A program made the position numbers and the translations under genes. Shown here in pieces: positions 21,301-51,411 of a stretch of DNA of 64,000 nucleotides. The DNA comes from Verrucomicrobiia bacterium (GTDB lineage Bacteria; Omnitrophota; Omnitrophia; Omnitrophales; Aquincolibacteriaceae). The notes under the pieces were generated by a model. The model worked only from the letters and a program-made list of their open reading frames with translations, made no database searches and had not been told where the DNA came from. Position 1 is the first letter of the stretch. Each line of letters begins with the position of its first letter. The stretch spans positions 41,763 to 105,762 of the forward strand of contig DATJFP010000088.1 in assembly GCA_035495615.1 (NCBI GenBank), given 5' to 3'.

Positions 21301-24300
21301 ATGAACGGTTCGAGCGCTTCGAGCGAACGGTAGATGTCCGCCTTCTGTTCCGTGGAGATGCCGCTGTCGTCCTGCGACGCCTTCAGCATGAAATTCCGCA
21401 CCGCGCCGTAATCGAGCGATTCCAATCCTTTGAGCGCGGGCATCTGCGCGAGCAGGAGGCCGTCCAGGTACTGGTTCGAGAAGGACCGCGCGAAATTCGG
21501 AATCGTGAGGACCATGGACAGGAAAGCCGTATTAAGGAAGCCGGAAACCGTGAAGGCATGGACAAACGCCTGCACCGCGATGCCGATGATCGGAATGCCC
21601 GCCGTGCTGACCGTAAGATACGAGCCGACAAAACCCAGGAGGCTCGCGCCCGCGATGCCCGCGGGAAGGGCAAAGGAAATCAGGGCGAGGCCGAGCGCGC
21701 CGATGAGGGCCATCATGGTCCTCTTCTGGATGAATGTCAGGGCCGGGAAGACGAGCGGCTTCAAAATCAATTTTTGGACGACGCGGTAAACCGTGTTGTA
21801 CCAGCGATTGCCGTACTGGAGTCCGTTCAGGACGGACACCACCGGCTTCCAGCGCAGGAACAGGTGGTAAATCCCCTTCTCGGCCAGGCCGCCTTTGCGC
21901 CAGTCCGTGAACTGGCGGTCGTAACCCGCCTTGTTGGCGGCAAGCATGGCGCCGGCCAGCGCGTGGATCGACGAAGAACGGTCCATGGCTTCGACCGCGC
22001 TGATGATCGTATAGCCGCGGATCGTGAGCCCGCCGCGGAAAAATCCGAAAATGATCGCGCGGCGGAAATAACCGTAGAAGAACTGGTCCAGGAGGTGCGG
22101 GCCGGCCATGACAAACCAGCGCGCGATGCGGTATCCCCGGTACAGGAATCTGCCCCAGAACGTCTTGGGCTGCTCATCCGGGCCTTCGTGCGGCTGCTGG
22201 TCCGCGCGTTTGTAATGCGCTTCGAATTCTTTTTCAAGCTCCGAGTAGATGAACTGCCACTTCTTCACGTCCGGATCGTTGTAATCGAAGCCCGTGGCGC
22301 GCGCCAGGTCTTTCAAGTCTTCTTCCGAGTAGCCGAATTCCGCGCGGATGCGCAAAATGATCCGTTCCCGGTCCGGATTCACGCCGAGCTTGAGCATGCC
22401 CTGGATGTCGGGCGGCTTGCGCTCGTAGCGGCGAAGGACAGCCTGGATCGCGGTTTCGAGCGCGGCCGACTGCGTCCGCAGTTCCGCGCGCGGCATCGTC
22501 TCGTTGACGCGAAGGCCGGAACGCATGCCGGTAAAGATGCCCTGCAAAAATTCGCGGCGGCCGAAATCTCCGGCCTGGGCCATTTCAAGGGCGTTCTTGC
22601 CGAACCACAGCGCCCCCATGCCCATCCCCATGCCCTTCTTTTCCATGTTGCGTTCCTGCTCGAGGGTCTGCTCGTAAATCCTTTCGTATTCGTCGCGCCA
22701 GAAGCTGAAGTAAAGGCCCTGGTAATAGCTGTTGTCCGGAAGTTCGGCCTTGAACTGGTCGTACTCGGTCTGGAATTCGGGACGGACGAAAGAGCCGTCG
22801 GGGTTTTCGACATTCACGCCCTGCAGCGCTTTGAGGCGGCGGAAGGCGCGGCGCATGAAACGTTCGCGCAGGTCGGCGATGTCGGCGCGGCGTCCGATGC
22901 GGTTGATCGCGCGCACCATCTCCAGGCCTTCGCGCAGCACTTCGCCCACGTTACGGTCCCGCTGGTCGGAGCGGTAGCCGAGCGTCAAGATCGAGTTCAC
23001 GTAAGCGCGGACGCGCGGGTTCGAGTAATACATCTCCGGCGTGATGTTTTCCGGGATGTTCGGGTCGGTCGGGAAAAGCGTCCGGTAGAAGCCGCGCGAC
23101 AATTCACGGGCCCAGTCGAACGCGTGCTTGGTCTGCAGGGTGTCGTTCTGCGGGTTACGCAGTTCGAAAAGGAGCTGGCGGGGCTGCGTCGCGTCCGCGC
23201 GGTTGAAGCGCGTCGGATTCGCGGCGCCATCCGCGGGAACACGCGCGCGGCGGCCGTAGTCGATGAAAATGTCTTTCAGCAGCGCGACGCGGCCGAGTTC
23301 GTTGCGGTGGTCGGCTCTTGCCGCGGAGATGCGCTGGTTTCTCGCGGCCCCGTCGGCGCCCGTGATGAGCCGCGCCCTTTCGATGATGGCGTTCAGAAGC
23401 GCGCTCACTTCACCTTTGGTGATCTGCGGCAATTCGTCGAAGGACGGTTCGTCCGGCAGGACCGGCTGACGCAGCCCGAGCGCGCGGTTGCGGATGTTGG
23501 CCAGCGAAGCGACCGCGTTCAGCAGCTGGTTCAAATGGTTTTTCCCGCTCGAGGGATCCGTCTTGATCCTCTCGGGGTCGGCTTCGATGTAATCGACGGC
23601 CGCCTGCAGGCGTTTGCGGAAATTCACGACGGCGTCGCGGTTGTTGGTGTCCGCGGGCGTTTCGCGGATCACGTCCGCGGCCAGGGCGAGCAGCATGCCC
23701 ATGTTGAACGGCGCCGCTTCCATCTGTTCCTTGATGAGTTCGCGCTCCTTTTTCTTGGTGGGGTCGAGGCGCGGATTGCGTTCGACGCGCAGGACGCGTT
23801 CCTCTTCGGGAACATCCGACCAGTTCGTCCATTCTTCGTCGCCGCTTGTCCGCAGGCGGTAGATGTAGCGCTGGGCCAGCTCGTCGTTCTGCAATTCGTG
23901 CGCGATGCGCAGGTCGAGCTTCATCGTGTTGTAGTCGTAGCCGAGCGCCGAGAAATCTTCTTCGATCCTGGAGACGATCGACTGGTCGCGGAAATACGGG
24001 TCGGCGATGTTCAGCCTGCGGCCGTAAAGACGCTCGAGGTCCGGGAGCATCTCGCGGATGTTGCGCAGGCGGCCGTGGAAGAAGTCTTTGAACGCCTGCG
24101 TGACGCGGCGGTCCCCGCCCTCGCCTTCGAAAACCGGGATGTTCCGCTTGTCGGCGATCTCGCGCGTGCTGATCACCCACGCCATGCGCATGTTGACCCA
24201 GTACTGAAGAACCATCTGGCTCGTCCACTGCACCAGGTCGCCGCGCAGACGGCGCGTGACGCGGCGGACCCTTTCGTTGTTGCCGCTCAGGATGTCGAGC

Positions 24301-27300
24301 AGGTCTTTTTCGAGCAGGCCCGCCTCGCCCAGGATCGGAAAATACTGCGCGCCCTGGCTTTCGACGATGGCGAGCGCGGCTTCGAACGCGCGGCGGTCGC
24401 CGGCATTGCCGCGTTCGATCATGTCGAGCAGCTGAAGGGTTCTTCCGATTTCGGCCCCAAACGGATGCGGGAGCCTGCCGACACGGACGCGCTCGCGCAG
24501 CCACGCTTCCAGCGCGTTGTACTGGTTCTGCGCCTGGACGTTGTTGGGAATGAGCTGGCCGCCGCGGTCGATCGTAAAAATGGTCTGGGCATTGCCGGTC
24601 ATGAATTGCGGCACGTACAATTCGAAGAATTCGCGGCCGAAGACGTTTTCGTACATCTGAGCGAACCCGTCGTTGCTGATGTCGTACGGCGCCGGCCGTC
24701 CGTCGCGCGGCTGCTGGTCAGGAAGCTGGGCCCGGTAGAGGTCGAAGAAGTCCGCGTTGGTCTGGCGCAGGGCCGCGTCTCTTTCCGCCAGATTGCGGAT
24801 GTTTTTAGCGCGGCTGTATTCGGGGGTCAGGAACAGCATGTCCCCGAGTTTTTTGCTCATCTGGTTGTAAAGCGGCTCCTTGGTCTGGTCCACGCGCGCG
24901 GCGACAGGCTGCGGCGGCGGATACGGCGTGGCGACCCAGCCTTCGCTGAAATTGTACAGGCGCGGCTGGTCCTGACCGAGCTGTTCGAGCAGCGTCTTGA
25001 ACTGCTGTTCGTGCGGCTGCAGCGCGGTGGCTGTTGTGGGCGGCGGTGTCGCGCGCCCGCGGAACATGTGGAAGACCTGGCGCAGGCGCGTGATCTGCGA
25101 CTGGCCGGGTTCGCGGCCTATGGCTTCCAGGCCCGTGCGGTAATTCTGCTGAAGCTGCTGGTACGTCGTGGTGGTAAGCGTTTCGCGGCCCTGCGGCCCG
25201 AGGATCGTGAGATTCTGGCCCGACGTATTCCACACGATCACGGCGCGGTTTTCCGCGAGGCTGGAGATGAACGTGTCCCGATCGATGTAAGAATAAGCCG
25301 TCCTGGCAAGGTTGCCTGCGACGTTCAAAAGAAGGTTCGGCTTGAGCTGGTCTTTCAGCTGGTCCACGGCGGCCTTGAAGCCGATGGCCGCGTCGCGGGC
25401 GATCGCTTCTTCATCCTGCGGCTGGAAAAGCGTGAGGCCCAGGATGATTTCGGGCGAAGGCCGGATGTAAGGCACGTCGTTTCTCTGGAAGAGTTCGTAC
25501 TGGTTCGAGGCAATGATCTGCAGGGCCTTGTTGCGCGTCGGCGTGTCGTACAGCGAGTCGCGGGCGCCGCCGCGCACCCGCAGGGACGCGAGGCTGGCCA
25601 GCTTATAAGTATTAAGGAAGTCCAGGTCGTGGTTCGCGTACACCATCCGGGTCATGGCCACCCTGTAAGCTTCTTCGCGCAGGAAGTCGACGAGTGATTG
25701 TTCCGACTCGATGCGCGCGGCTTCCTGGGGCGCGCGGTAGTACACCGTCGAGGAACCCAGCTGCGCGGAATTGATGAACGTGGAATAACGCGTGACGCGC
25801 GGGGCGCCGTGCACGGCCAGGCTCCGGACCTGATAAGCCCGGTAGAACGTGTCCGCTCCCGACAGATGCCACCACGGCAGGAGCGCGGCGACCGGCGTTT
25901 CGGTGACTTCGGACATGATCACGTCGCGGATCCTCTGGGCCCTTTGCCCGGCGAGGTCTCTGACGGCTTCGCTCAGGATAAAGCCCATGTAGCTGGAGCG
26001 CGAAACCTTGGAAGCGAGGTTCAGGACTTCCCACTGCTGGTCGAGCTGGCCGCGCTCGTCCTTGTCGCTTTCCAGGTCACTCAGGAAGATCCGGCGGAAA
26101 GACTGGAAATCCGTTTCGTTCAGGCGGCGGAGAACCGTCCGCAGATTGCGGCCATCGCGCCCTTTGGCGGACGCGACCATCGACTGCAGGAGCAGGATGC
26201 GTCCCACGCGCTGGTTGCGCGTGATGTCCGTGGCATTGTCGGCGGAAAGGTTCATGCGGGCGAACAGGCCTTCGAATGTTTTCTTGAGCCAGTCGTATTC
26301 GTCGAAGCTGCGCGGATCGTTCCGGTGCAGCGCGGCCACTTTGTCCTGGTTGTCCGCTTCATGCCGCAGCAGGCGTGTACGCAATTGCCGGCTCTCGAGA
26401 CGGATGCGGTTGGCCGGAGCTCCGGTCACGCCGCTCGGAATCACGCCTAAAGCGCGGAGCAGGTTCTGTTCCGGGTTGCGGCCGTCTTCGTTGCGGAAGA
26501 CCGGGAAATTACGGATGGGGTCGATCGCGGTCGGATAGACCGACTTGTCATCGTCCAGGTAAAACTCCTTCAGGAACTGGCGGACGAGGTTGAGTTCGAT
26601 AAGATCCGCGGTCTGGGTGAAAGTATCGTCGGCCTCCACGGTGAAGCTCCGGCGGTTGTTCCCCTGCGTGATCCAGTGATTGACGCGTCCCGCCTCCGGC
26701 AGCGTGGGCATGTGGCTGACCTGGCGCACGGCCGTGGCTGTCACCGGCGTTTCCGGCGAGCGGTTGGCAAGGAATTGCTCGCGTGCCGTTTCCGGCTCAC
26801 GCCTCGGTTCCGGGCGCAAAAAGCCCAGGCCCGGCGGCGGCGGAAGAAGATCAAAACGCGGCATCAAAAGTTCCGGATCGATCTCCGGCAGCATGATGTC
26901 CGGCAGCGGAGGCGGCTCGATCGGGCGCGGACGAAGGAGTTCGTCGAGCGACGGATCGAATTCCAGCGGCGGCGCATTCGGGTCGATCGGGCCCGGGCGC
27001 AGCATGATGTCCGGATCAAAATCAAGGAGATCGGGTTCCACGTCTCCCGGCTGTCCCGGCGTGGGCGTTGCGGCCTGCTGGGCCGCGCGCTTGGCGCGCT
27101 CCTTATTCCAGATGTAGCCGCCCGCGATCACGGCCGCGACGCCCACGACGGCGCCCGCGATGATGATGTTGCGGCGGTTGACTCCCCGCTGGCGCTTGGC
27201 CGCGGCTTCGTCCGCCGCCTGCCTTTCCTTGGTCGATCGGGCCATGTACTCGAGCCCGTGCCGGATGGCTTCGATCTTGTCCGCGGCTTTGGGATGGATC

Positions 27301-30300
27301 GGAATTCCCTCGTCGCGGGCCGTTTCCTCGAACTCCTTGATGCCGGCCTCGATCGCGGTCTTCGCGTCCTCGATGGCCTGCAGGTGCTCGGGATAATCTT
27401 CCTCGTCGAGTTCCATGTCTTCATCTTCGATCAAGGCCTTGTGCTCGGCCAGAAGCTTGTTGTACGGCTTCACCGCTTTTTCCATCAGGATCTGTGTAAC
27501 CTCGCGCACCCGTCCTTTTTTAACTTCCGCTTCCTTTTGCTTGGCCACGCCGATGTTGCGGTGGATCTGCTCACGCGTCGTCCTGATCTCGTCGATGCGC
27601 GCGGTCAGAGGATGGTCCGGCTGCTCGAGGCGCGGCAGCTTCGCGAAGATCGTCTGCGACTCCTCGGCAAGCTCGAAAAGGGCGATCATGTTGTTGACCG
27701 CATCGGCCGCTTCGTTCACCGCGGCCCGCTCATGATCTTCGATGGGCTCCGCGGTTCCTTCCTTGTCGCCGAGCGCCCGCGCCAGGTTGTAATAAGTCTC
27801 GTAATGTTCGTAGAGGGTCGCGCGCTGGTCGGCCGCTTCCGCCGTATCCGCGAAAAGCTGCGGCATAAAACCCTGCTCGCGCAGCGCCTGCAGGTACATG
27901 GCTTCGAGGCCGGGGACCTGGGCTTCCATGGCGCGCAGATCCCGCACTTTGATGAACCACATGGCATAGAGTTCCGAAAAGAGGAAGTTCCCGCCCAGGC
28001 GGTGCGACGAAGTCTCGGCGCGCAATTCAGGGCGGGCAATGCCGCTGACCGCGCCGGGGTCGATGCTTTTGAGCTTTCCGTCGTCGTCCAGGATGAGATT
28101 GCGCCAGACGTCATCGATATCCACGATGCGTTTGTCGTTTCTCAGTTTGACGGTCGCGGCAAGAGCGCGGTGGCGGCGCACGTCCGCCTGGAAGACGGCC
28201 TGGAAAACCGCGGTCTTCTGAGCGGGTTCGATATCCCCGCTCGCGGCGACAGCCTGGAGGATGCGGGCCATGTCCGGGCCCTTGTAATCCTGTTCCACGG
28301 TAAGCTTGCCCGGTTCCTCGGAAACCTGCCGCGTCGGAACGAAGAATTCGCCCAGCACGGCCTGGTTGGCGAGACTGAGGCGCGCCTTCGTGTCGTCGAG
28401 GCTGACGGCCTCGTATTCTTTGGTCACTTTCGTCGGATGGGCTTCGTCGTCGGCGCTCAGCTTGGCGTGGAACCCGGACTTGATGCTGACCGGCAAGGTC
28501 GCTGCCACCTGACGGAGGATGGCCACGACTTCCGCGGGAAGCGGCGCGTTGTTGCCGCGCTCTTCCTTGATGGCATTGTTCAGCGCGCCTTCGATCTTAT
28601 TGAGGACGTTTTCCGCGTGCTCGAGTTTCGGCCGGTCGCCTTTCACGAGATTGGCGTAGGCAATGACGAGTTCGCGCAGGCGCCGGGCCGAGAGGTCGCG
28701 TCCCGTGCCTTCCCAGTTTGCGCGGTTTCCATCAAACCGTTCCCGCTGAGGCACGGACAAACGCGCGAGCATGCGTGCCTGCTGGCGGAGGATGTCGTCG
28801 ATGTCGAGGAAGGCCTGCAGGAATTCGTCCAGATAGGTGCGCAGCGCGGCTTCGTCTTTGGCCGCAATGACGGCCTGAACGTTGGCCAATTTGTTCCGTT
28901 CGCTCCAGACCGCGCCCGCGGCTTCCAGGCGCGACTGCAGGACATCCGGAAAGTTCTTCTTTTCGACTTCGATCTTTTTCTTTCCCGCGAGTTCCTTGAG
29001 CTCGGCCGCCATGTCGCCCAGGATTTTTTTATTTTCCGTCTTGTCCAGGTCCGCGAGGATGCCGTCGACGTCGGCCGGCGTCGCGGCCGAGGTGATGCGG
29101 TCGGTGAATTGGCGTACCAGCGCGGTGCGGGTGTCGTCCTCCTGCCGTTTCTGGTCTTCGAGAGCGCGCTGGCGGGCCTGGGCCTGCTGCACGAGGCGCT
29201 CCTCGACTTCCGCCGGAAGCTTGGCCGCCCGGATTTCTTTGAGCACGGCGGTGATGTTGTCGAGCGTCGCGCCTTCGATTTTCTTTTCCAGGTTTTTGGT
29301 CTTACGGTGGATGTTGATTTCTTCTTCCAGTTCCTGCTGGGCGCCTGTCGAAAGCGCGCTCTTGCGGACTTCGTCCAGGATGCCGTCCAGCACCGCGAGA
29401 TTGGCCACGGTCACGGCCGCGATGCGGCCGCGGAAGGACGCGATCAGCGCGTCCTCGGCCTGCAGTGTTTCGTCAGCGGCCGCGCTCAGCCCGATGCCGG
29501 TTTCTTCGGCCACTACGCCCGGAGGAGGCGTGCTCGGACGGCTCGGCGTCGGCGGAGTGACGCCTGCCGCGCGCGCGAGGTATTCATCGACGACGCTTTC
29601 CAGCGTGGCCTGCTTTCTCCAAACCCGCACAAGACCGTCCTTAATGAATTCTTTCCAGAGATCATGGCCCAGCTTGCGGCGCATGAAGTCCATGAGGACG
29701 GGCCCGTAATGATATTCCGCGGATTCCGGCGCACCCTCTTCGATTTTTCTCTTCAATTTCGTGGCGTGGAGGCTGCGCTTCTGCTCTGACAGCGCGGGGA
29801 AGGTCACGTCCAGCACGACATTGCCGGTCGCCGTTTCCCGCTGAAGGGTTTTGAGTGCCGCATAGACGAAATCGTTGGCCAGCGCTTCCGTGGCATAAAG
29901 CTGGTCCGGAGTGCGCGGGCCGGTCAGCGTGCGGTGCATTTCGTTGAAGATCGCATGGCCGACTTCCTCGATGTGGCGGACAAAGATGTCGGTCAAGCTC
30001 AGGTTCGCGATGTTGAGCGTGATGATGGTCTTCAGCGTCCCCTCTTCGCGGACCATGCGGGCACGGGCCTTCTTGTCTCCGTCATTGCTGGAACGGATGA
30101 CGATCCGGGTGATGGGAACCCGGGTCTTGGGCCCGTAATATTCGCTGCTGAAGCGCGTCAGAAAATCGTTGAGGGTGTAGAGCTTGCCCTTGTAGGGGTA
30201 GACTTTCGCGTACTTCACGATGAAGGCAATGAAATGCGCGCGGTATTTCGCGTTCCACGACGCGTCTTCGGGATTGTGCTTCTGGATCATCTCGACGATC

Positions 30301-33300
30301 TTCGCGCGCACTTCGTCCTGCTCGGCTTCGTCTTCGATGTTTTCCTGCAAGTACCGGTCGATATCGTCCTTGACCTTGTCGGGCGTCATCTTCAACACCT
30401 GGAAAAGATGGTCGGTGAGCGTCCTCACGTTCACTTTACCCCAATTGAGGCGGACGCGCGCCACATTGGCATCCGCGTCATGAATGGCCGTATCGAGATT
30501 GCCTTCGCGCAGCAGGGTCTCGGCCACGGGCTCGCTGAGAATAAGGCCCTTCTTGACCTGTCCCGATTTTCCGTTCGCCGTCAGCCGCAGCAGCTCCACC
30601 TGCATGGGCATCAAAGCGCCGGGCTTTTCCTCCGGGGCCGCCGGCAGCGTGTCTTCGGCTTCGCCCGGTTCCGGCAGGAGTTCTTCTTCGTTTTCCGTGA
30701 CCACGGCAGGCACGGCCACCGGCATTTCGGGGGTCACCGCCGCAACGGGCGCCACTTCGCCCGCTTCGCCGACGATGTCGGCCTGGGCCCGGGCCATGCG
30801 TTCCAGGCTTTCCTGCGTTTCCGTCGGGAGCCCGCTCGCGGCAACGGCGGCAAGAACGCCCGCGGCCGTGTCCGGAGTCATGTTCGTGATCTGCTGTTTG
30901 AGGTCCGCGATCGTGCTCGACATGGCCAGGGACATGCCGCCCTCGGCCTCGGACTTGGTGATGAATTCCCTTCTGGTTTCGTAAGGCCCTTCGAGTTCGC
31001 CCAGGTGCGACACGTAATCGGCGATCTGCCGGTTCACGGCCTCGCGGTCCGCCGCCTCGTACAAGCGCCCGAACTTTCTCTCGATCGCTTTCCGGCGCGC
31101 GTCGATTTGTTCGAGATGCTGCGTCAGGTCGAAATCATCGAGCGAAGCCATGGTCTGGATCTGGTCCAGCAGCGCCTGGCGGTCGAGCGCCTCGTCCAGC
31201 TCCGCGCGGAAGCCGCGGACCGTGCGCAGCACCAGTTTCTTGAAGCTCGCGTCTTTGGCGCGGCGGGCGGCAAGCGCGGCCGCGATCGGATCCTCTTCCG
31301 GCGGCGTCATGCGCAGTTCGGAGCGGCGCTGCTGGCTCTCACGCATTTCCGCCTTGAGGCCGGTAAGCTCTTCCTGCTTGGCCACATAAAGCGCGTCCAG
31401 ATGTTTGAAGCGGTTGTTGTCGGTGGCAAAGGCATTCAACCGTCCCTGGATCTGCTGGTAATGCTCGACGGTAAAGGCCTCGCCGTAATTTTCGCGCATG
31501 GAAGCGGCCGCGGTCCGGATGGACTCGAGATGCTCGGTGAAATCGAAATCGTCGATGTGCTCCATGGACGCGATCCGCGCTTCGAGGACTTCCGTATTCA
31601 AGAGTTCGTTGTCGATGCGTTCCAGGAAATAACCGACGGCGGCAGGGACCAGCGCCGCAATCTGCCGGTCGAGATCCTTGTCGAAGTCCGGCACCTGCAC
31701 CGACATGAGCGCGTCCGGAATCGACGTGTCCGTGCCTTCTTCATTAATATAGCGTTTGGCCGTGACGAGCGCTTCCAGGCGCAGCGGCACCAGGTGGCGC
31801 TGGGCGTCCGCGCCGATCTGCGGGCCGAATTCGTCGATGACAAGATTTTGAGCGGCGACAAATTGTTTGAGGCGGGCCACGGTCACGTCTTCTCCCGCGG
31901 CAAGGGGCTGTCCATAGAACCGGGCCATGATCGCCTTGGCCGGCGTGGGCTTTTTGCCGTGCGTGGCCTGGAACTGCGTCCGCAGCTGCACCAGCCCGTC
32001 CGACAATCTGCCGCGCGCCACGTCCAGGAGGCCGTTGACGCGGTTGGCTTCGATGAGCCGGTTCATGCCCGGCCCTTCGGCGAGAACTTTCCCCGCGGGA
32101 AGAACGGTTCCCACAAGCGTTTTTTGCGACGCCGCTTCTGCGATGGCGCGTTTCACGCGGCCGGCCGCCTCGCGCAAGACGCCGAGTTCCGAGAGGATTT
32201 CCTGCTGAAGGGCGCGGTAAGCTTCGTCGAGAGGTTTATAATTTTCGCGCACCGTAACGAGGCCGCTTTCGTCCTGGGCCGCGTAGGGGTGGTCCGCTGC
32301 GAGTCCTTCGAAGAACTTTTCGAGGACCCGGTCGACTTCCGTGGGATCGTCGGTTTTCGAGGGAAGGTCGTTGAGATTCCGGATCCGGCTCTGAATGCGG
32401 GTCAGCGCGCTATGCAGGTGGCCTTTTTTATCGGGCTGCGATTTGATCCGGGCCAGATTGCCGGCAAGCAGTTCTTCCATCGCCGCTTCCTGGTCCGGAT
32501 GCGTGCGCAGGAAATCCACGATTCCCTTGTTCCCGATAATGTCGGTGAGCCGCGACAGTTCCGCCTCGACGGTGCCGTGCATGTCGCCCTGGACCTGCGC
32601 CAGCATCCCGCTCACTTCAGGCCTGAGGGTTTTCGCGGTTCCGTCCAGCGAGGCCTGCAGCGCGATCTCGTCGAGCCTGGCCGGGGTCATGTCCTGGAGC
32701 GCCTCGTTGTCCATGTGCAGCGCGGTCAATTCCGCCACCACTTTTTTCGAGATCAGAACATGATAAAGGTCGCGGATGTCGGCCGGCATGTCGTCAAAGC
32801 CCTTGCCGCTGGTCGAGGCCCGCATGGCCGCGGCCTTCAGGGCGTCGCCGGTCGTCTCTTCCAGCTTTTTCCCGGTCGCGTCGCCCTGGATGTCTTTCAG
32901 GTACTGGCGGACATTGTCCGCGATGGCATTGCGTTTTTGGGGTGCGAGGACCGTGACCACCTGGGTTTTCAAGTCCGCGGGCACGTTCTTGAGCAGGAGG
33001 AGCATGCGCTCGACCGTGACCACGGCATTTTTCTTCTCGCTGATGTTTTTCATCCAGCTCTGGACTGCGGCGGTCGTGGCCTTGAAAATCGCCGCGGCTT
33101 CATCGGCTTTGAGGGTGAGCTCCTGGCGCAGCGCGTCCGCGCTCTTGATCTTGCCTTCGGCCGTCGGATAATCGCGTCCCGGCTGGGCCTTGGCTTGATC
33201 GAGAAGCGAGAGCACTTCCTGGATTTTGGCCAGCCGGATATCCTCTTCCGTCGGGGCCGCGGCCGATGGAGGCGCCACTTTTCCGGGCGTCTGCAGTCCC

Positions 33301-36300
33301 ACGAAAGAAACGTCATCGTCGTCGGCAAAAGGATTCGCGCGTTCCAGCCTCTTTTCCAACCCGTCTCCGGGGATCGAGGAGGCGTCCCGCGCGGCCTTGG
33401 CCAGCGCGTGCACGGTCTGATCCAAAGGCAGGGTGCGCGTCATCTCAACCAGTTCTTCCATGCCCGGGATCGGCATCACGCGGCCCACGACCGAGATCGT
33501 GGCCAGCGGCTTGCCGGGTTTGTTGGCGAGTGTCGTCGTCCGTATCGTGCTCAAACCGGCAGGCGTGCTCTTGTCGCCGCCGTCGGAATAAACCAGCGCC
33601 CGCGTTCCGGGAGGCACGTCCACCTGGGTGCGGTTGTTGCTGCCCAGCAGAAGAGCATCTCCGGAAAGGAATTCGTCGTGCTTGTGGCGGACGCCCAGAT
33701 AAAGCTCCAGGTTCTCCTGCGTTGTGAAGCGCGGAAGCGTCTCGCCGAAATCTTTGGCCTCCACCTTGCCGTCCGGGAGAATGAAAATGCCGGTGCTGTC
33801 GCCGTAATCGAGACCCAAGCCCGCGTATTTTTTCTTATCCGGATCGGCAATCTGCCGTGTTTCCGGGTATTCCCAGACAAGACGGATCGTGAGGGTGGTC
33901 ATGGCCCGCGAATGAATCTGCCGGGCCCGTTTGGCCTCGGACAAAGCTTCATTGGCCGCATCGACCGCGTCCTCGAGGACTTTCAAGGCGGCCTCGGGCG
34001 TTTGCGCCGCGAGCAGCTTTTCCCGGGTGGCTTCCTTCTCGATGGCGGCGATCACGATAAGCGCGGCCTGCCGCCCGTCCGGCTGCCCTCCGGCACCGTC
34101 CGCCACCGCGATGAGGCCCCGGTCCGGCAGGTTGAGAATGGCGTCTTCGTTGTTCTGGTCCGCCAGCGGTTTATTGATGCGGTACACTGCGGGAGCCGTG
34201 TAAGCCCAGGTCGTAAAACCCGTAGCCTTGCCTTCGATAGCTCTCTTTTTCGCGTCAAAATCATCTCTTACCCAAGGCCTGATCCGCTCCGGAAGCGCTT
34301 CGATCTGGCCTTCGACCGCCGCCAACTCCCCCGCGCTTGAATTCAGCGTCAGCGCGTCGACTGCCGCCCGCACCGGCATGTAACGGCGCCGGTCTTCCTG
34401 GATGCGCTGGGTAATCTGCAGCTTCTTGGCATCGGCCGCGCGGCCGATCTCGTCTTCGAAGCGCTGATAAACGCGCGGCGTGGTTTCTTCTTTGGCGCTC
34501 TCGACGTTTTCGTCGACGATGGCGATGCTGAGGATGTTGATGTCCGCCTTCTGCAAGTCCTGGATAAATTGCCGGAGCCGCTGCTCATCCCTCTTATCCT
34601 TGGCCGCGATCTTTTCTTTCTTGGCCCGTATGGCTTCCTGGACGTCGGCACGCTGCCGCAGCCGCGCATCCGTCAAAATCTTGGCCGCTTCCCCTTCGAC
34701 ATCGGCTTCCGCGACGGTTCTGGGGTCCAGGGCTGTGATCTTGCTAATGGCTTCGAACGCCGCCTCCTCATCCGCGGCAACCCGCGTCCGGATGGCCTCG
34801 TTCTTTTCGGCGAGCCGGGCCTGTTGCAGCCGGGCCGCGGCGTCCTGCGCGCCGTTCAGCCGGTTTTCCAGCGGTGTGACGTCCGAAAACGCATTGAGTG
34901 GGGTCAGCGCATCGACTTTGGGCGTAATGTCCGCTACGATCAGGCCCACGACTTCCCCGATTTCCCGCTTCAAAGCCGCCTGCAGTTCCGTGTCTTCCTT
35001 AATCTGGTCCGCGCGGCTGAGCAGCGCTTCGGCATCCGAAACCTGCGCCGCGGCAACATTCTTGCGGAGGTCTCCCAGGAGCCTGCGTACGTCCGCCGCG
35101 ATGTCGTTGTTCGAGCGCGAACGATCCCCGATCGACTGCCGAGCGGCTTCGAATTCTTCTTTGAGCGATTCTTTGAGATCTTCCCGGTCCGCGACACGCG
35201 CTTCCTGAGCCTGCACGTCCGATTCGTTTTTGACCCGGCGGAGCTGGATCTTGATATCCGCCATCAGGTCGCGGTCGAGGCTCTCGCGCTGCGTGATGGC
35301 CTCTTCCTTGGCTTCCACCTCGCGCAAAAGACGCGCCGCCCGTTCGCCCCGGGCGCCGGTCACGCGCGCCCGCAAGCCCTGCGCGGCGGTAAGGTCGCTG
35401 CGGTCAGTGAGCTGCGCGATCTGCGGTTCGATCGCATCCATGATCTTTTCCGCGGCCGCGTCGATCTCGCCTTTCACCTTGTCTCTCAGTACGGCGCCCG
35501 CGATCTGATCCGCCTGGTCGGCAAGGTCCTGCATGGTGCGGACATAAACGCCGTCGATCGCGGCCGTTTCCGTAATTCTCAGGCGCACCGCGGCGGCGGC
35601 CGTGTCATCGGCCTGGATGCGGCGCTGGATCGCGCCGCTGATGTCATTGGCTTTTTGCGCGAGGCGGTTGGCGCGCTCGGTCTTCGCATTGACGAAACGG
35701 CGGCGCTGCGCCTCGACTTCCTCTTCGGTGCTGAGTTCGCCGAGCCGGTCGAGAGACTCGTCGATGTGAGCGGCGACAAGCACCATTTTGCGTTCGATGA
35801 GCGCCTCGAGAGGGCCGCGCATTTTCGCGTTCTTCAAGCCGGCCAGTTTTTCCGTGACGGCTTCGACGTCCTGCAGCGCGGCCGTTTCCGTGTCAAGGCC
35901 CTGAAGCGCCCCGCGCACGTCCTGGTCGATCGCGCCGTCCTGCCGGATCCGTTCCTGGATCGCGGTTCTTTTCTGCGTGGCAAGATCAAACAGCTCGGGA
36001 ACCGATTCCGCTTCCTGCATCCGCGCTTCCTGCGCGGCAACGTCCTTTTCTTCGTTCAATTCCGTGAGCGCTTCCAGTTTTCCCCGGATGTCGGCCGCTA
36101 CAAGCCCGCGCGACTGCTCGATCGCGGCAACAGTCCTGTCGCGAATGGCCACGGTCACGATTCCCTGCGCCCGGGCTTTCGCGGTCTCAAACGGCTTCAC
36201 CGTTGCCGTGGCCGGCGTTTTGGGAAGGCCGCCGAGGATTTCCCGCGCGGTTTCTTCGTCGCGGCGTCCGCGGTCGCGGATGCGCGTCTTGATGTCGGCG

Positions 36301-39300
36301 GCGAAACCTCCGATGCGCTGACGCTGCCGTTCTTCGGGCAGCCGCGCCACGGCCGCATCGACGTCCGCTTCCGTGCTCTGTTCGTTGGCGGCGAGCGCGT
36401 TCATGGCCGCCTGCGCGTCCCGGATCAGTCTCGAATCTTCTTCTTCACGTTCCCGCAGGAAATCGCGGCGCGCCAAAGCCGCTTGCCGCAATCCTTCAAC
36501 TTCGGGCGATTTGGCGTTCTTCAGCCGGTCTTCCTGGGCGCGGATGTCGTTGACGTCTTCCGCGGCGGCGATTCGTTCCCGGATGTTCTGCACCACGGCA
36601 ACGCGCTTGGCCTCGATCTGCGGCCTCGCTCCTGTTTTCAAATCCTCATAAGGTACGGCTTCTGCCCGCTCGGCATAAGATTCGATGACTCCGAGCGGCA
36701 CGCCGTCTACGCCAAAGCCCGTCACGTCGCCGACCAGCCGTTCCATTGTTCGCTGGTAGTAATCGTAAATCTGGGCTTCCATCTGAGTCCGCTTGGCCTC
36801 GAGCCGCGGGAACACGAAAAGAAGGAGCGCGTGAAGGCTGGGGGTCGATTCGGTTTGAGCCAGGAGGTTCTTTTTCGCGCGCGCGTAGGCGGTTTGTTCC
36901 GCCGCGGCTCCGGCCTCCTGGTATTCTTTCAGCGCGCGGACGAATTCGTAGGAACTCTTCTGGTCCAGGGGCGGCATTTCCGTGGAAGTCAGCATGGCCG
37001 CGGCTTCGGGCACGATCTGGTCCGGCTTGTCGAGCTGTGCCGCCATGGCCGAGATGAGCCGCGATTCGTACTCGGCGAGGGCGGCTTCAGTCGTGCTGAG
37101 GCGGGCGCCGATGCGCGATTGAAGTTCCGAGACAAGAGGCGCGGGACTGTCGGCCGTTCCGGCAAGCGCCGCGGCTTCCTGGCCCAGGCCCTGGAGGCTC
37201 TGGTAATTTTCGTGCGGATCGCCGCGGGTCTGCTCGAGACGCTGGGCAATGTCGCGGAACTTGATCGTGTTATCGACCTGCGGCGTACGAACTTCGCCGG
37301 GCAGCACTTCGAAAAAGGCAATGACCGCCAGGATGGCGTCGAAATTCGCGGCCACATCCCCCATGTGGGGCTGCAGCGCGCCTTGCAGGAGGGTTTGTCC
37401 GCGCGCGGCAATGATGCCCGGAATCTGGGGCCTGTCCGCTTCGGAGGCCGCGCCGCGCTGCGCGTACGTGTCTACCAGGATCTGCGGGCTCATGGCCTGC
37501 GCCGTCGTGGTCTGGATCAGTTGAAACGCCCGGGCCAGCTTCAGGACGTTCAGGGCGTCGTTATTTTCAGGAGAAAATTTCGTGGTGTCCCACGTGATGG
37601 CGGCCAGACGCTCGAAGGAGTCCGCGCGGTTGATTTGCTTGGCCAGCCGGCCGAAGCGGGATTTTTCCGTGCCGCGCCATTTGATCACTCCCCAAATGGC
37701 TCCGGCTCCGGCCGCGAGACCCGCTGCGATTAAAGCGGGCCCGGTAAGATTGGGCGCGTTGACCGTGACGCCTCCTGCTTGTTCCGCCAAATACTGATAA
37801 AGTTCGTAAACGCCGTAAACCGCCACGCCGGCGCCGGTGAGAACTCCCAGGCCGAGCAGAATGCGGTTTCTCCAGACGCGGGCCGTCTCTTCCCGTCTTT
37901 CCAGTTCGGTCTTTCTCGCGCGCGCGCCGTCCTGCTCCGCCGCGGGCAGATCATTGATCACAGCTTCGGTAATATCGGCCGACCGCCGGGCTGCTGCGAC
38001 GGCTGCGCGCGCATCCTCGATCTTCTTGAGAGCGTCGCGCTTTTCCCGGGCCTGGTCCCGCTCGCCGTCGTTTTCGAGATCCGCGAGCACCGCGTCGGTA
38101 ATCTGCGCCGACTGCGTGGCCGTGGCGACCGTACTTCTCGCGGCTGCAAGGCGCGCCGCCTGGATCGCCGTCCTCTTGCCTTCCGCGACTCCGGCGAGCC
38201 TCGCCGCTTCCGTCGTCTGAGCTCCTTCCAGACGCGCCGTCTGCGCGGCCACCTCTTCGATCGTGCTGGCGTCGGTCAATGCCGTCAACTTGCCTTCGAT
38301 GTCCGCCACGATTTGCGTGACTTTGCCGCGGATTTCATCTTCCACCGCCCCGCGAGCGGCCCCGTCTTTGATGCCGGCCGCCAGAGGCAGAAGAGCTTCG
38401 GCGTCGCTTATTTTCGCGGCAGCGGCATCGATCTGTCCGAGCTGTGTCCGGATATCGCGCGCTTTATCCTCGTCACCCCGCAGCCGGTCGCGAATCTGTT
38501 CCACGGCGGCATCCGCCTGGTCTTTCACCTGGATGCGGAGACGTTCCTCCAGACCGTTCACAATGGCGGCGAGCTGATCTTCCGTGGCCGTTTCCAAATC
38601 CAGGGCTCCGATCGCGCGCTTGGCCTCAGCGACCGCGCGGCCGTCCGCTTCGATTCTCGCCTCGATGGCTGCGCGTTTGGCTTCCGCCAATTCCCGCAGC
38701 CGCGCTGCTTCGGGAGTCTTGGCATCTTCGAGGCGTGCGGTCTGCGTCACCACCGATTCGGGAGTGTTGAGTTCGGTGAGGGCATTCAATTTGCTTTCGA
38801 TGTCGGCGACGATCTGCCCGACTTTGCCGTTGATCTGGCTTTCGACACTGCCGCGAAGCGTCGCGTTCTGGATCTGCGCGGCGCGCGTCAGCAGGGCTTC
38901 CGCGTTTTCGATCGTGGCGCTTTCAGGCTGAACCTGCCCGAGATCCGAAAGGATGGCGCCGGCTTTTTCGTTGTCGCTGCGGCCGCGCTCGCGGATCGCG
39001 GCAATCTTGGCATCCGCTTCGTCGCGCACATGATCACGCAGGCGGGCCGGCAGCCCGCTGCGAATGGCTTCAACGGCGTCTTCCGCCGCCGTGTTCACAT
39101 CAATGTCGTCGATCTGGCGCTTGGCTTCGACTATAGCCCGGGCATCGGCCCCGAGCCTGTCGCTGATCGCCTGTTTTTTCTGTCCCGCCAGATCGCGCAG
39201 GCGTCCGGCATCGGCAGCGGCGGCGCCTTCGAGCCGCGCAGCCTGGGCATCCGGGTCAGCCAGCGCATTCAGTTCCGTCATGGCGTTCAACTTGCCTTCG

Positions 39301-42300
39301 ATGTCCGCGACAATCGCGGTAACGCGGGCGTTGATTTCGCCCTCGATCGCGCTCCTCAAGGTTTCTCCCTTGATCTGTTTCGCCCGCGGCAACAAGGCTT
39401 CGGCGGCGTGCACGTTGGCATCGCCCGGAAGGAGGGCCGCAAGATCGCCGCGGATCGCTACTGCTTTTTCATCGTCGCTTCTCAAACGTTCGCGGATGGC
39501 CGAGAGCGCCGCCGCGACATCTTCCGCAATCTGGTCACGCACGCGTTCGGGCACGCGCGTCTCGATGGCTTGGACCTGGGCAGGCGTCGCGGTTTCGGGA
39601 TCGAGCTGGCCGAGGTCCTGTTTGGCCGCCGTGACGGCTTCGCGGTCCGCGGCGATGCGCCTCGTGATGGCGTCCATCTTGCCGCGCGCCAGATCGCGAA
39701 GGCCTGCGGCTTCCGAGGTAAGCGCGTCTTCGAGGCGCTGGACCTGCGTGTCGACTTCGGCCGCCGCGCTCAACTCGGTCAAGGCTTCCAGTTTTCCGCG
39801 GATGTTTTGGACGATCCCGCCCACTTTCGCGTTGATTTCATCCCGCACGGTTTCTCTCAGAGCGGGGTTCTTGATGTCCGCGGTCTCCGTCAAAAGGGCT
39901 TCGGCTTCTTTGACAGCGGCCGTTTCAACCGGCAGCAGTCCAAGCCGCTCACGAATGCTTTGCGCTTTTTGTCCGTCGGTTTCGATGCGCTGGCGGATCG
40001 CAAGCAGGGCCGCCTGCGCTTCGGTGCTCACCTGGCCGCGCAGACGTTCAGCAAGACCGTTCACGACGGCTTCGACATCGGTGGCCGCGGCTTCATTTAT
40101 ATTAAGGCTCGTGATCGCCTGCTTCGCCTGGCTTACGGCGAGCTCGTCCGCCCGGATCCTTCTCTCGATGGCGGCCGATTTTTCTTCCGCAAGCGTGCGC
40201 AGCCGGCCCGCTTCGGACGTGGCCGCGTCTTCCAGCCTCGGCGTAATCGCCGTCACGCTGGCGGGCTCGTTCTGGTCCGTCACGGCATTCAATTTCCCTT
40301 CGATGTCCGCAACGATCGCTTTGACTTTCTGATTGATCTCGCCTTCGACCGCGGAGCGCAGCGTTCCGTCTTTGATCTGCCCGGCGCGGGTCAGCAGCGC
40401 TTCCGCGTCTTTGATCGCCGCCGTATTGGCAATCGCTCCGAGGTCACCCCGGATGGCCGCCGCCTTTTCGGTATCGCCCTGCGTGCGTTCGCGAATCGTG
40501 GCGGCCGCGGCATCCGCTTCGGCCTTGACCTGATCACGCACCCGTTCGGGCACGCGATTGCGAAGGGCTTCTACGTCGTCCACCGCGGCCGTGTCCAGAT
40601 TGAGCGCCGCGATCGCCTGCTTGGCTTCGCGCACGGCGCGTTCGTCCGCGTCGATCCGGTTTTGAATGGCCCTGGATTTCTGCTCCGCCAACTCCCGCAG
40701 CCGGGCCGCTTCCGGCGTCACCGCGCCTTCAAGCCGCGACGTCTGGGCCGTCACTTCTTGGGCCGTGCTGAGTTCCGTCAAGGGCGTCAGCTTCGTTTCG
40801 ATGTCCGCGGCGATCTGGCCGGTCTTGGCATTGATCTCGCCTTCCACGGCCGGACGCAGCACCGCATCTTTGATCTGCGCCGCGCGGGGAAGCAGCGCTT
40901 CCGAATCCGTGAGCTTGGCCGTCGCGGCGGCGATACCCTGCAGGTCCGAACGAATCGCCGCGGCTTTTTCTCCGTCGCCCCGCGTGCGGTCGCGGATCGT
41001 GGCAATGGCCGCGTCCGCTTCGGTCTTCACCTGCTCGCGCACCCGCTGGGGCACCCCATTGCGGAGGGCTTCCACTTCGTCCACCGTGGCCGTGTCCAGA
41101 TTGAGCGCCGCGATCGCCTGCCTGGCGCCGCTCACTGCGAGCGTGTCGGATTCGCCGCGGCCGGAGATGGCCTGAGACTTTTGGCCTGCCAGCTCCCGCA
41201 GCCGGGCCGCTTCCGGCGTCACCGCGCCTTCGAGCCGCGCCGTCTGGGCCGTCACCTGGTCGGCCGTGCTTTCGTCCGTCAAGGCGTTCAACTTTCCTTC
41301 GATGTCCGCGACGATCCGCGTCACGACCGCGTTGATTTCGCCTTCCACGGTCGTCCGCGCGGTCTGGTCCTGAATCTTTGCGGCGCGCTCGAGCAGCGCT
41401 TCCGCGTCTTTGATGTTCGCGGCCGCCGGCACGATCCGTCCGAGATCCGCGGCAAGGGGCCCGCGAAGCGCCGTGTCTTCTTCGCCCCGCTTTAAGTCAT
41501 CCCGCCGCCGTTGAGCCCCTGCCAAAATCACGTCGTAGGCGCTTCTTTCATCCCCGGCGAACGTCACCCCCGTCACAAGCCGTTCCGCTTCATCAAGTTT
41601 CTGCTGCGCCTCGGCCGCTGTGTCCGCAGCCTGGGCTGCGGCAAGCAATCCGACCAGCGAAACAACATTGCCTCGGCGCGTTACCTGCTCTTGTTCGGCT
41701 CGCTTCAAGTCGCGCTGCTTTACGCGCAGGGCTTCGAGGGCTTCGGTATAACGGGCTTCTTCCTGGCCGGCAAATGTGACCTGGCTGCGCAGTGCCGTGA
41801 CGGTCGCGATCGTGGCTTCCGCCTGCGTCGACGAGGTCGGCTCCACGGCCAAAAGAGCCATCAGGTGCCGGACTTTTCCCGAACGTTCGGCTTCCGCATC
41901 TTCGTCCGTCTTGAGACGCTGCGCGGCTTCGCGTGCAAGCCCGAGCGCATCGGTGTACTGCCGCTGTTCATTCCCCTGAAATTGGACGCGGCCTGCAAGG
42001 TCTTCGGCTTCTCGGATCATTTCCTCGGCTTCGGATGCCGTTGCGGCGCGCTGCGCGCCTGTCAGCAGGCTCTGGATGCGGCGCACCGAGGCTTCGCGGT
42101 CCGCGACAAGTGCCCGATGCTCGGCGATGAGTCCGGCCAGCGCGCGCGTGCGAGTGCTTTCAGCGGCGCCTTCCAGCCTTTTTTCCTGGAGGTCGAGGAC
42201 GCCTGTGTCATAAGTGCTCGTGACCTGGGTCCGGATATTGGATTCGATGGCAAGCGCGGTTTGTTCGACTTCCCCTTCGAGCGTCGTGCGCAGGCCTTGA

Positions 42301-45300
42301 TTGCGGACGCGCGCCACGTCCTTCAGCACGGCTTCCGCTTCCGCCAGCGTGGCCGTCGCCGCTTTCACATTCAAATTCGCGAGCGCGTCACGTACGGTCC
42401 TGGCCAGGGTTTCTTCCTGCGCCACGGCTTCCTGGATGGCTTTCTTTTTCTGTCCCGCCAGCGCCTGGAGCCACGGCTGGGCCGCGGGATTGAAACGCCT
42501 TTCCTGCGCCTCGACCGCGCTGACGGCCGCGGTTTCGTCCATCGCGGTCAGCGTTTCCTGGATGTTGTCAATGAGGCTGCCGATCACGCGGCCGACTTCG
42601 CCCTGCCACGCCTGACGCACGCCTTTGTTCTGGATCTGATTGACCCGCTGATAAAGCATTTCCGCGTCGCTGATCTGGGCAGTCGTAAGGTCGAGGCCCT
42701 CGATCGCTTCCATCACGCCTACGGCAATCTCATCGTCTTTGCGGATCCTGTCGCGGATGGCCTGGCGCACGGTCTCGGCTTCTGCGGCAATGCGCGTCTG
42801 GAGAGGTTCCCGCAAAGTCGCGGCCACGGCGTTCACGTCTTCTTCCTTCGCGGTCTTCGGATCGATCTTGCTCAGTTTCCCCAGAACGTCCTGCACGCTC
42901 GCCGCGTCTTCAGTTTCCTGCAGGGCCATGAGATCCAGCACTTCCACGACCTGTTTGTCCCCGCGCACGGCGTCTTGGAGCCGCAGCGGAAGCGCAGTGA
43001 TCGCGGCTTCCACGTCCTGGGAGGCCGCTTGCCCGATCACCATGCTCGTGATGGCGGCGATCGTCTGCGTTTTCATCGCTTCGTCTTTCTGCTCACGGGC
43101 CGTGATCGCGCGGGTCATCTCCTCCACCTTGCTGCTCAGCCTTTTGAGGACGTCTTCCGGAAGGCGGAGGGCCATATCTTCGGGAAGACGGAACATGACG
43201 GCGTTGACCTGAGGCACGGTAGAGGTCTCGACCGGAAGAGCGCCGATCTCGGCAACCAATCCGTCGATAAAGGCGGAGTCGCTCGCCGCCTGGAAACGAT
43301 CATGGACCGCCTTGACGCCGGCCGTGAGATCCGTGCGCAGATTTCCGCGGTAGCCGCGGGTCCGTTCGCTCTGAGCGGCAAGCTCGTCTTCATTTTTGAC
43401 TCCGGCCAGACGCTCGACGACGTTCTGCGCCACCTTCTCCTGCTGCGCGGCCGCGGCCTGTTCGATCTGGTCCCGGTAAGCGCGGCCAGGCGCAAATCCC
43501 AGCAGCCGCAGCCCCTGTTGGACAAAAGCCGAGACGTCGCGCACCGACACCTCGCGCGCGTCGATTTCCCCGATTTGCCGGACAAGGTCTTCCACGGCAC
43601 TATCCATTCTCTGCCGGCTCCGCTGTTCGCGGCTTTCGGCAAGGTCACGCTGTCTTTTCTGTTCACGGGCCTGACGCGCCTGGTCGACCGGCACGGCTTC
43701 GAGTTGTTCGACCGCGGTTTCGCGGGCCTGTTCTTCCGGCTGTGGCACGGGCTTGGGCTGTTCTTCGGCCACTTCGGCCGCGGGAACTGACTGGACCACG
43801 AGCGAATACAGATGCGCAATGTCTTTGTATTCCTGGAGGACGAGCTTGATGACTTCCGTACGCGTCTGCACGGCCATCTCGAAAAGCGCCTGCTTTCTGC
43901 CTTGCGCGGTTTCATCCGCATCGGTCGTCGACTGCTGTTTCAGCGCCTCGAAAAGCGCGCGGATGAGCGCCGGGAGCTGGGCGAGTTTTTCCTGGACGGC
44001 CAGAAGCTGGCGCGCGGTCTGTTCGCTGGACAATTCTTCTTCGCTGGCAAGGCGTAAGGTTTCCAGGGTGTCGCGAAGGCTGTGGAGTCCCTGCACGAAG
44101 TTCGCGCCGTCCTGATAGCCTTCGCTCAGCTTCGAATAAATATCGCGGTAGGCCACACCGATGGCCTGGACCGCGTTGTCTTGGGCCGCCCGCAATTTCT
44201 CATCCAGGCTTCCGAGCGCTTCATCGAGCTGCTGGATGCGTTCGGTGAAACGCACGCGCAGCGCCTCGGCCCGGGTCTGGATTTCAGTGCCTTCATAATA
44301 AGATTCCCGTGACAAGGCAGCCAGCTGCTCCATGACCACGTCCCGAAGCCGCCACAGGGTGTACTGTTCGTTTTCGATGACCCCGGCCGCTTCACGCACC
44401 AGCGGGAATTGCCCCGCGGGCTGCTGCAGCTGGGCCTCAAGCTCTGATATATAGGAAGCGGTGTGCCCGAGCTCCTGGTCCGTTTCGCGTTCGATTGTGT
44501 TCAAACGGCGCGTCAGCACGCCCATGTTATATTCCGCGATTTGCCGGATCTTCTCGTCCGCGGCGGCGCGGACGCGGTCTTTGAGATTCGCGGGTAGGAG
44601 ATCGACCAGCCGGTTGACTTCCGCGGGCGTGCCGACCGGAACCGAGACTTTCGTCTCGATGGCGGCCGTGACTTTTTGCACCTGCAGGTCGTCGAGCTTG
44701 CCCAGGGAAGCGGCGCCGCGCGCAATAACCGCGGCAAGCGCCTGCCTTCTGGATTTCAAAAATTCAATTTCGCTTCGCACGCCGGGATCCACGGCGTCCG
44801 GATTTTTTCCGAAGGCATCTACCTTCGCGTCGAACTGCGCGAGCGTCCTATCCGCTTCCTCCCGGATTTTCCCGATCTGGAGCCGGATCGTGTCGAAGAT
44901 GCTAGTCGTTTCTTCGGTGAGGTTCGGGACGTTCATGAGGCTTTCGGCGACTTCGAGGCTGCGGATCAGCCTCGTCTCTTCCGTTTCGTAGAAAGCGCGG
45001 GCTGCGGTGACTTCGCCCTTCAAGGCCAAAACGCGTTTTTCCGTGAGTTGGATTTTACGCGTCAGTTCCCGGATCCCGGCCTGGGCGTCTTCGGTCACCC
45101 TCTTCAGGGAATCGTCGAGCTCGCGGAGAAGGTCTTCGGGTTCTTCCGTCGTCCTCAATTCCGCGCGCAGGCCGACAGCAAGCTGGGGCATCTGGCGGGC
45201 ATTCCCATTCAAGCTTGCGAGAAGCTGGCTGCGTCCTTCGCTTCCGAGACCCGCAAAATAGGCATCGGGCCGGCCGAGCAGTTCGCCGATCAGGGCCAGG

Positions 45301-48795: not shown

Positions 48796-48796
48796 T

Positions 48797-49228: not shown

Positions 49229-49239
49229 GATTCCTCCTG

Positions 49240-51402: not shown

Positions 51403-51411
51403 ATTGAATTT

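Follow-up and report, generated by a model that had tools for sequence, protein, structure and literature searches.

The giant gene and its PP2C-type domain

We analysed a 64,000-nucleotide stretch of contig DATJFP010000088.1 (assembly GCA_035495615.1; forward-strand positions 41,763 to 105,762), here called the window. Its minus strand carries a giant gene that runs out of the window at position 3, and within this gene lies a domain of the PPM/PP2C metallophosphatase superfamily, which is the subject of this report. The two features concerned are as follows.

3..48530, minus strand: giant open reading frame (ORF) of at least 16,176 codons, starting at an ATG at 48530, its C-terminus lying beyond the window start
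33291..34202, minus strand: PP2C/PPM-fold domain as modelled, residues 4782-5085 of the giant protein

A six-frame scan revealed a stop-free minus-strand frame from 48545 to 3 (16,181 codons, leaving the window), which is the sole long stop-free frame of that strand across the PP2C region and which shows, along its full length, the pattern of G+C content at the first, second and third codon positions (GC1, GC2 and GC3) that is typical of coding sequence. Residues are numbered throughout by codons counted from 48545, so that the start Met is residue 6. Because this frame runs off the window, the ORF listing omits the giant gene and contains instead 11 shadow ORFs (about 760-1,940 codons; plus strand, 165-47228) opposite to it. 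Plus-strand ORFs of 760-1,890 residues over the PP2C locus gave a nonsense translation, rich in Arg, Gly and Phe, and were dismissed as shadows of the real gene. Read on the reverse strand, 33300-34400 gives a stop-free, normal-looking protein with the PP2C motifs.

These motifs stand in the canonical order on the minus strand: NED (34143-34151), DGAGG (34086-34100), MTT (33894-33902), GDS (33795-33803), SDG (33579-33587) and DDDV (33312-33320). An earlier note on this DNA had reported the NED, DGxGG and SDG motifs, all of which are present in PP2C order, and had suspected from mental translation only a GDS motif between them, which was found at the position given above. It had also put the module at 33540-34210; the domain is real, but the modelled span is the longer one listed above and the last motif, DDDV, falls outside that interval. 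The idea that a PP2C-type module is embedded in a giant, repeat-rich, multi-pass protein was borne out, the module occupying roughly residues 4782-5085 of frame 3-48530.

Profile searches gave a mixed outcome for the three Pfam families that the earlier note had named: PF13672 (PP2C_2) matched above its gathering score (27.7 bits versus 24, E 2.3e-6; 26.2 bits when searched within a 1000-residue tile), over profile positions 9-101 of 209 only, whereas PF00481 and PF07228 had no match at E <= 10. The NCBIfam profile for Stp1/IreP PP2Cs (NF033484) scored 33.2 bits (E 3.5e-8), short of its curated cut-off of 230 bits; this match is superfamily-level similarity only, and the domain is not an Stp1/IreP equivalog. 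Searching 1.84 billion representative proteins with phmmer returned 53 matches (best 45 bits, E 6.6e-7), and the approximately 40 that we inspected were, bar one SPRY-repeat false positive, ordinary PP2Cs of about 250 residues (six had 448-1,236 residues), all aligned to query residues 28-121 only. Comparison with 30 PP2Cs by hhalign yielded a probability of 99.0% (E 2.6e-18), and upon greedy extension the six query motifs fell on NED, DGMGG, GTT, GDSR, LCSDGL and DNIT. MAFFT independently aligned all six motifs, with the query occupying all six invariant columns, and a PDB sequence search with the PP2C segment recovered PppA and PstP, marginally. Since several independent comparisons agree, we consider the observation of a PP2C confirmed; the match is far beyond chance.

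A PP2C profile search of the 16,181 residues found no second copy. One stretch at residues 6385-6444 (29220-29400, minus strand; DGILDEV...ATLDNITAVL) resembles PP2C motifs 8 and 11, has a below-zero PP2C profile score, and is probably a chance match. A word-indexed search of 5.8 billion proteins, run with the PP2C segment and with the 2,020 residues that follow it, had no match for either.

The metal-coordinating aspartates, whose conservation the earlier note had left to be checked, are all retained. Those of motifs 1, 2, 8 and 11, which build the binuclear metal centre of bacterial PP2Cs (PMC12088040), correspond to D4801 (NED), D4816 with G4817 (DGAGG), D4988 (SDG) and D5077 (DDDV), in columns that are Asp in 32-34 of the 34 aligned PP2Cs. 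The motif-5 Asp, the third-metal ligand of bacterial PP2Cs in a 2025 survey (PMC12088040), corresponds to D4916 of the GDS motif (G4915-D4916-S4917) and is invariant (34/34 sequences). Among the 30 columns with at least 85% conservation in these 34 PP2Cs, 21 are unchanged in the query, against an overall identity of about 24%. The Asp of PGD is replaced by T4981. Three insertions of about 20-35 residues interrupt the domain, located after the TT strand, after SDG, and after the last helix, before motif 11. The modelled domain has the alpha-beta-beta-alpha PP2C fold; AlphaFold run from the single sequence reached a predicted local distance difference test (pLDDT) score of 35 only. The fold is that of a PP2C, divergent, with its metal ligands intact: sequence, ligands and fold are those of the PPM/PP2C superfamily, and two accessory Arg residues are missing. 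That the ligands persist while the flanks are without a detectable homologue argues for selection on catalysis, and we infer that the catalytic core may be under selection and the substrate-binding surface remodelled.

Organization, membrane topology and neighbourhood of the giant protein

The remaining features of the giant gene, in the order of the protein, and the signalling genes upstream of it are the following.

48435..48530, minus strand: Sec-type signal peptide MIDWQTRRAKPWLRTVALLVALIFIVHDVVWA, then DGGG (residues 6-37)
46371..48434, minus strand: conserved N-terminal domain of about 690 residues (HIQDAHxNxEAQ ... TGGFHTPG)
38160..43070, minus strand: helical repeat array 1, residues 1826-3462, from self-BLASTP
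37683..37862, minus strand: two-helix hydrophobic hairpin, helices at 37806-37862 and 37683-37748 (residues 3562-3580 and 3600-3621)
34596..36683, minus strand: helical repeat array 2, residues 3955-4650, from self-BLASTP
27108..27167, minus strand: single hydrophobic helix, residues 7127-7146, hydropathy 2.2-2.4, rich in Lys and Arg on both flanks
21501..21719, minus strand: cluster of two or three hydrophobic helices, residues 8943-9015
10275..14471, minus strand: multi-pass membrane block of about 20 helices, residues 11359-12757
6909-7106, minus strand: weak CCA-nucleotidyltransferase-like stretch, a marginal PDB match
5430-5762, minus strand: weak ARMT1-like stretch, 19.7 bits, below threshold
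171..281, minus strand: cytidylate-kinase-like P-loop INIAGPAQAGKST, PF02224 at 36.5 bits (threshold 26)
48797..51243, minus strand: response regulator, hybrid PAS histidine kinase and response regulator (Pfam), upstream of the giant gene and co-directional with it

The protein thus begins with the signal peptide (residues 6-37) and the domain of about 690 residues, continues through dark sequence into array 1, the hairpin and array 2, and reaches the PP2C domain, behind which come 2,040 dark residues, the single helix, the helix cluster, the block of about 20 helices and the C-terminal region. The repeat unit measures 167 residues and is rich in Ala, Glu, Leu and Arg and poor in Pro in the aligned units; core copies of array 1 are 46-64% identical. 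Array 2 is made of repeats from this family, 28-47% identical to array 1, and about 130 residues separate its end from the PP2C domain. We defined the repeats by protein-level comparison; Tandem Repeats Finder detected none at the DNA level, since a period of 501 nt is more than the program allows and the copies have diverged too far. Membrane helices and the signal peptide were judged by hydropathy and charge, not by DeepTMHMM or SignalP, and on this basis the protein has at least 25 hydrophobic helices.

The soluble segment that bears the PP2C domain is bounded by the hairpin (residues 3562-3621) and the single helix (residues 7127-7146). From the membrane helices near 37.7 and 27.1 kb the earlier note had deduced that the membrane separates the phosphatase from the helical repeat rod, and three observations contradict this. 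The element near 37.7 kb is a two-helix hairpin, from which the chain returns to the same side; the 167-residue repeats flank it on both sides; and nothing hydrophobic separates array 2 from the PP2C domain, no segment between them reaching a Kyte-Doolittle mean of 1.3 or more. Because no such segment intervenes, the PP2C domain is contiguous with the repeat array. Were the second hairpin helix the only one of the two to span the membrane, array 1 would face outwards and array 2, with the PP2C domain, inwards.

Indicators of the side itself conflict, parity counted from the signal peptide pointing outside and the positive-inside rule pointing to the cytoplasm. The two hairpin helices (hydropathy 1.83 and 1.66) enclose a 19-residue acidic loop, and Lys and Arg number five in the N-terminal flank, zero in the loop and six in the C-terminal flank, a classical signature of cytoplasmic flanks. 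Nucleotide-using features at the other end of the visible protein (the P-loop and the weak ARMT1-like and CCA-like stretches) suggest that the C-terminal region is probably cytoplasmic; the P-loop was also matched by TIGR00017 (E 2.2e-9) and PDB entry 1q3t (E 1.8e-4). Counting helices back from this ATP-using region was dropped as a way to assign the side, the number of helices in residues 8943-12757 being ambiguous. A hydrophobic stretch after the N-terminal domain, noticed in one relative (L081, residue 596), is weak in the window protein and probably a buried helix. Both preprints on giant proteins describe topology predictions at such lengths as unvalidated (West-Roberts et al. 2023, 10.1101/2023.11.21.568195; Nielsen & Lui 2026).

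In the signal peptide, a positively charged n-region precedes an h-region of 12 residues, and V-W-A occupies positions -3 to -1; over 30 Omnitrophota relatives keep this pattern (xWA with D, Q or A next, or else AxA). The N-terminal 720 residues have 44 homologues, each of at most 1,252 residues and most labelled partial; the named ones carry an Omnitrophota or Omnitrophica title, except for two, titled 'Candidatus Theseobacter exili' and 'bacterium'. Residues D92, H94, Q100, E122, G123, E159, R468 and GGxH496 of the N-terminal domain are invariant (alignment A3). It has no Pfam or PDB match, and there are hints that it may be a Tiki/TraB-like metalloenzyme; one member of the domain family weakly matches ChaN/Tiki PF04187 (E 0.006). 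Six metagenome loci (L081-L086) are 54-79% identical in the N-terminal region. With the exception of L083, whose frame is interrupted at codon 532, these contigs all stop within the giant gene after about 2,200 codons or fewer. The short-read contigs Ga0209573_1000118 and OBEQ011230883.1, for example, reach about 2,100-2,200 codons into it, and the ORFs of two relatives stay open to the contig ends, giving at least 2,117 and at least 2,210 residues with 0 and 1 Cys, respectively. The family is therefore known from N-terminal fragments only, as no relative's assembly reaches the PP2C position. Short contigs of the same organism occur in JGI 3300045391 and SRR9009773.

In composition, the giant protein is rich in Ala, Leu, Arg and Glu and has no Cys in 16,181 codons; the 15 flanking proteins have 26 Cys in 4,462 residues, a frequency at which about 94 would be expected. 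The Cys of PP2C motif 8 (LCSDG) is replaced as well, by Tyr (Y4986). G+C content is 0.62-0.67 in the giant gene (GC3 0.73-0.86; window 1-48500) and 0.50-0.55 in the flank (GC3 0.60-0.73; window 48500-64000), and the homologous genes in L081 and L084 are without this elevation (0.49-0.54). Tiling the 16,181 residues against Pfam and NCBIfam revealed no domains beyond the PP2C and the weak or clear nucleotide-enzyme stretches near the C-terminus, and phmmer of the entire protein against the PDB found only the CMP-kinase P-loop and the marginal CCA-nucleotidyltransferase match.

Upstream, the window carries on the minus strand (48797-58242) genes for YajQ (c-di-GMP binding), PilZ, a patatin that binds cyclic nucleotides, an ORF of no assigned function, an acyl-CoA ligase, an alpha/beta hydrolase, a response regulator, a REC-PAS hybrid histidine kinase and a second response regulator. 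This whole neighbourhood is syntenic in L081 (292-9714), and the response regulator/hybrid kinase module adjoins the giant gene in relatives too (L081 and L082). The giant gene is preceded by an AT-rich gap of 266 bp, in which lies a strong match to a sigma-70-like promoter (TTGACA-17-TATACT, 11/12; 48705-48733, minus strand). A weak terminator-like hairpin follows the response regulator gene (48780-48794). At the window end, a lepA fragment shares 74-83% identity with its eleven best matches; nine of these are MAGs titled Omnitrophota/Omnitrophica and two are titled 'uncultured bacterium', and Nitrospirota follow from 68% down. We assign the window to the Omnitrophota because both the flanking lepA and the conserved N-terminal domain match that phylum. 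A tblastn search with the giant protein against 80 lepA loci found nothing.

A probable tethered phosphatase and its alternatives

We consider it probable, from the homology and the ligands, that the window encodes a genuine, highly divergent PPM/PP2C metallophosphatase domain within a giant Omnitrophota membrane protein. Such a domain would bind two or three divalent cations (Mn2+ or Mg2+) at D4801, D4816/G4817, D4916, D4988 and D5077, and a metal-activated water would hydrolyse the phosphoester. The most likely substrate would be a phosphorylated Ser or Thr of a protein close to the membrane, and the module would be tethered, like PstP or SpoIIE, to the membrane face on which the repeat arrays lie. 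As for that face, we lean slightly towards the cytoplasm because, to our knowledge, every characterised bacterial PP2C acts inside a cell.

Several points weigh against a tethered, catalytic PP2C. The conserved signal peptide together with an even number of helices predicts an extracytoplasmic PP2C domain, and we know of no phosphoprotein substrates for that location. The Pfam and NCBIfam tiling of the 16,181 residues brought up no partner domain such as a kinase, FHA or STAS. The sequence profiles cover only the N-terminal half of the domain, so that the C-terminal motifs depend on greedy hhalign, MAFFT and the structure model; in turn, the alignment given to AlphaFold consisted of PP2Cs picked by similarity to the query, which biases the model to the PP2C fold, and the flap and the insert after SDG were modelled at pLDDT below 50. 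An orthologue of the PP2C segment was absent from every collection searched, including scans of GTDB genomes, JGI metagenomes and IMG/VR, which gave no relative. Finally, the phosphate-binding Arg of motif 1 (RxxNED; Arg in 30 of 34 relatives) is D4796, the motif-5 Arg (GDSR; Arg in 34 of 34), which bridges the flap and the catalytic core in PP2C groups I and II, is T4918, and the flap DH is GE at 4934-4935. Loss of both Arg residues and of the flap DH, together with the three insertions, suggests substrate recognition unlike that of housekeeping Stp1/PstP-type enzymes.

The same losses can be read as a change of chemistry. Legionella effectors built on the PP2C fold include SidD, a deAMPylase, and Lem3, a dephosphocholinase, and with these as precedents the window domain could be a hydrolase of another phosphodiester-linked modification, acting outside the cell on or in a host or prey; we hold this to be unlikely. 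The PP2C domain would be exported along with the N-terminal 7,000 residues, a step that we rate no higher. It would then serve, with its repeat arrays and a giant Cys-free tether, as an effector phosphatase or other phosphoester hydrolase, either at the surface of the Omnitrophota cell or inside an attached host or prey cell, a role that we regard as equally doubtful. Parity places the segment outside, given the conserved Sec signal peptide, the lack of any hydrophobic helix from there to residue 3562 and the two-helix hairpin thereafter, and the replacement of both phosphate- and flap-binding Arg residues of classical PP2Cs favours other chemistry. The giant protein is also Cys-free, as are many exported bacterial proteins; however, Cys is missing from the membrane blocks and the ATP-type P-loop region too, so that its absence is no specific mark of export. 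Omnitrophota include predatory or episymbiotic cells, whose giant proteins, according to a published proposal, act on the surface of the prey (West-Roberts et al. 2023, 10.1101/2023.11.21.568195). Against export stands the hairpin, whose 5 + 6 Lys/Arg residues in the flanks and none in the loop are the signature of flanks on the cytoplasmic side.

Somewhat less probable again is a pseudophosphatase comparable to TAB1 or RssB: the domain would have retained its PP2C fold for binding or scaffolding and would catalyse little or nothing. Replacement of the two near-invariant Arg residues, the flap DH and the PGD Asp, the three insertions with a poorly modelled flap, and the failure to detect a kinase partner within the protein are all compatible with it. 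However, the pseudophosphatases that we know of on this fold (TAB1 and RssB) have lost metal ligands, and the window domain retains five Asp ligands and the DG glycine despite only about 24% identity to its nearest relatives. That the motifs arose by chance in a compositionally biased giant ORF, or that the ORF is an artefact, merits next to no credence: the protein is indeed Ala/Leu/Arg/Glu-rich and nearly without Pfam matches, but chance cannot account for a stop-free frame of 48.5 kb whose GC1/GC2/GC3 pattern is that of coding sequence, and its N-terminal 720 residues are conserved in 44 homologous proteins; these results refute the explanation.

Across the first 16,000 residues of the giant protein, which are otherwise dark, no catalytic module but the PP2C can be recognised with confidence. 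The phylum is one of ultra-small and possibly predatory bacteria, and this piece of about 300 residues is among the few entry points to the protein that lend themselves to experiment. Establishing its location would calibrate topology predictions for giants, which the literature calls unreliable. A cytoplasmic domain would be an ordinary tethered signalling phosphatase and would add one data point for the view that giants mostly sit on the cytoplasmic face. A truly extracytoplasmic one would put the PP2C fold to a new use, would be the first such PP2C in a bacterial surface protein, and would offer a direct biochemical handle on host manipulation by these nanobacteria.

Comparison with known systems

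Over structural alignments, the window domain is 16-27% identical to the phosphatases PstP, tPphA, PppA and Stp1 (1txo, 5iti/2j86, 6jkv and 2pk0). It differs from all four in having Asp for the motif-1 Arg and Thr for the motif-5 Arg, in lacking the flap DH, and in carrying the three insertions described above. PstP/Stp1-type PP2Cs are 240-residue enzymes or N-terminal domains, whereas the window domain begins about 4,800 residues into a giant protein. SidD, Lem3 and TAB1 are structural neighbours of the window domain, farther from it than the classical phosphatases are, and gave no sequence-level match to it.

SpoIIE (10 transmembrane helices, a regulatory domain and a PP2C) and PstP (a PP2C, a transmembrane helix and an extracellular domain) resemble the window protein in holding the PP2C at the membrane in cis. 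The PP2Cs of both are cytoplasmic (PMC12088040), whereas the side indicators conflict for the window PP2C. The SpoIIE family PF07228 is not matched by the window domain and the SpoIIE architecture is not found; in contrast to the C-terminal PP2C of SpoIIE, the window PP2C is internal, with thousands of residues before it and more than 11,000 after it. The window protein is not SpoIIE-type.

The closest setting is that of the giant proteins of the Omnitrophota. One survey counted 916 proteins of at least 10,000 residues, 39% with a signal peptide and transmembrane helices and 15% Pfam-dark (Nielsen & Lui 2026). By the description of long Omnitrophota proteins (at least 10,000 residues, a signal peptide and transmembrane helices) the window protein belongs among them, having at least 16,176 residues, a signal peptide and at least 25 helices. 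It shares with those giants the phylum, a length above 10,000 residues, a signal peptide, many transmembrane helices, helical repeat scaffolds, scattered and strongly divergent enzyme domains, and PilZ and signalling genes nearby. It differs from them in being Pfam-dark save for the PP2C and the CMP-kinase P-loop, and in having no Cys. Of the Archaeovorin domains (GT5/GT1, methyltransferase, NUDIX, glycoside hydrolase, C39/S8 peptidase and SecA_DEAD) none was detected in the window's 16,181 residues, nor did the tiling find the HEAT repeats of that type, HEAT_2 reaching E 0.096 only. Archaeovorins are also characterised by a divergent SecA_DEAD domain near the C-terminus and a length of at least 30,000 residues; the visible part of the window protein, which stops short of the C-terminus, contains no such domain. 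The portion of the supplement text available for the two giant-protein preprints has no PP2C or SpoIIE entries. West-Roberts et al. (2023, 10.1101/2023.11.21.568195) name Ser/Thr phosphatases as domains that occur on giant proteins of Omnitrophota and Actinobacteria. Mixed enzyme domains are already known on Omnitrophota giants, and the window PP2C is an unusually divergent further case.

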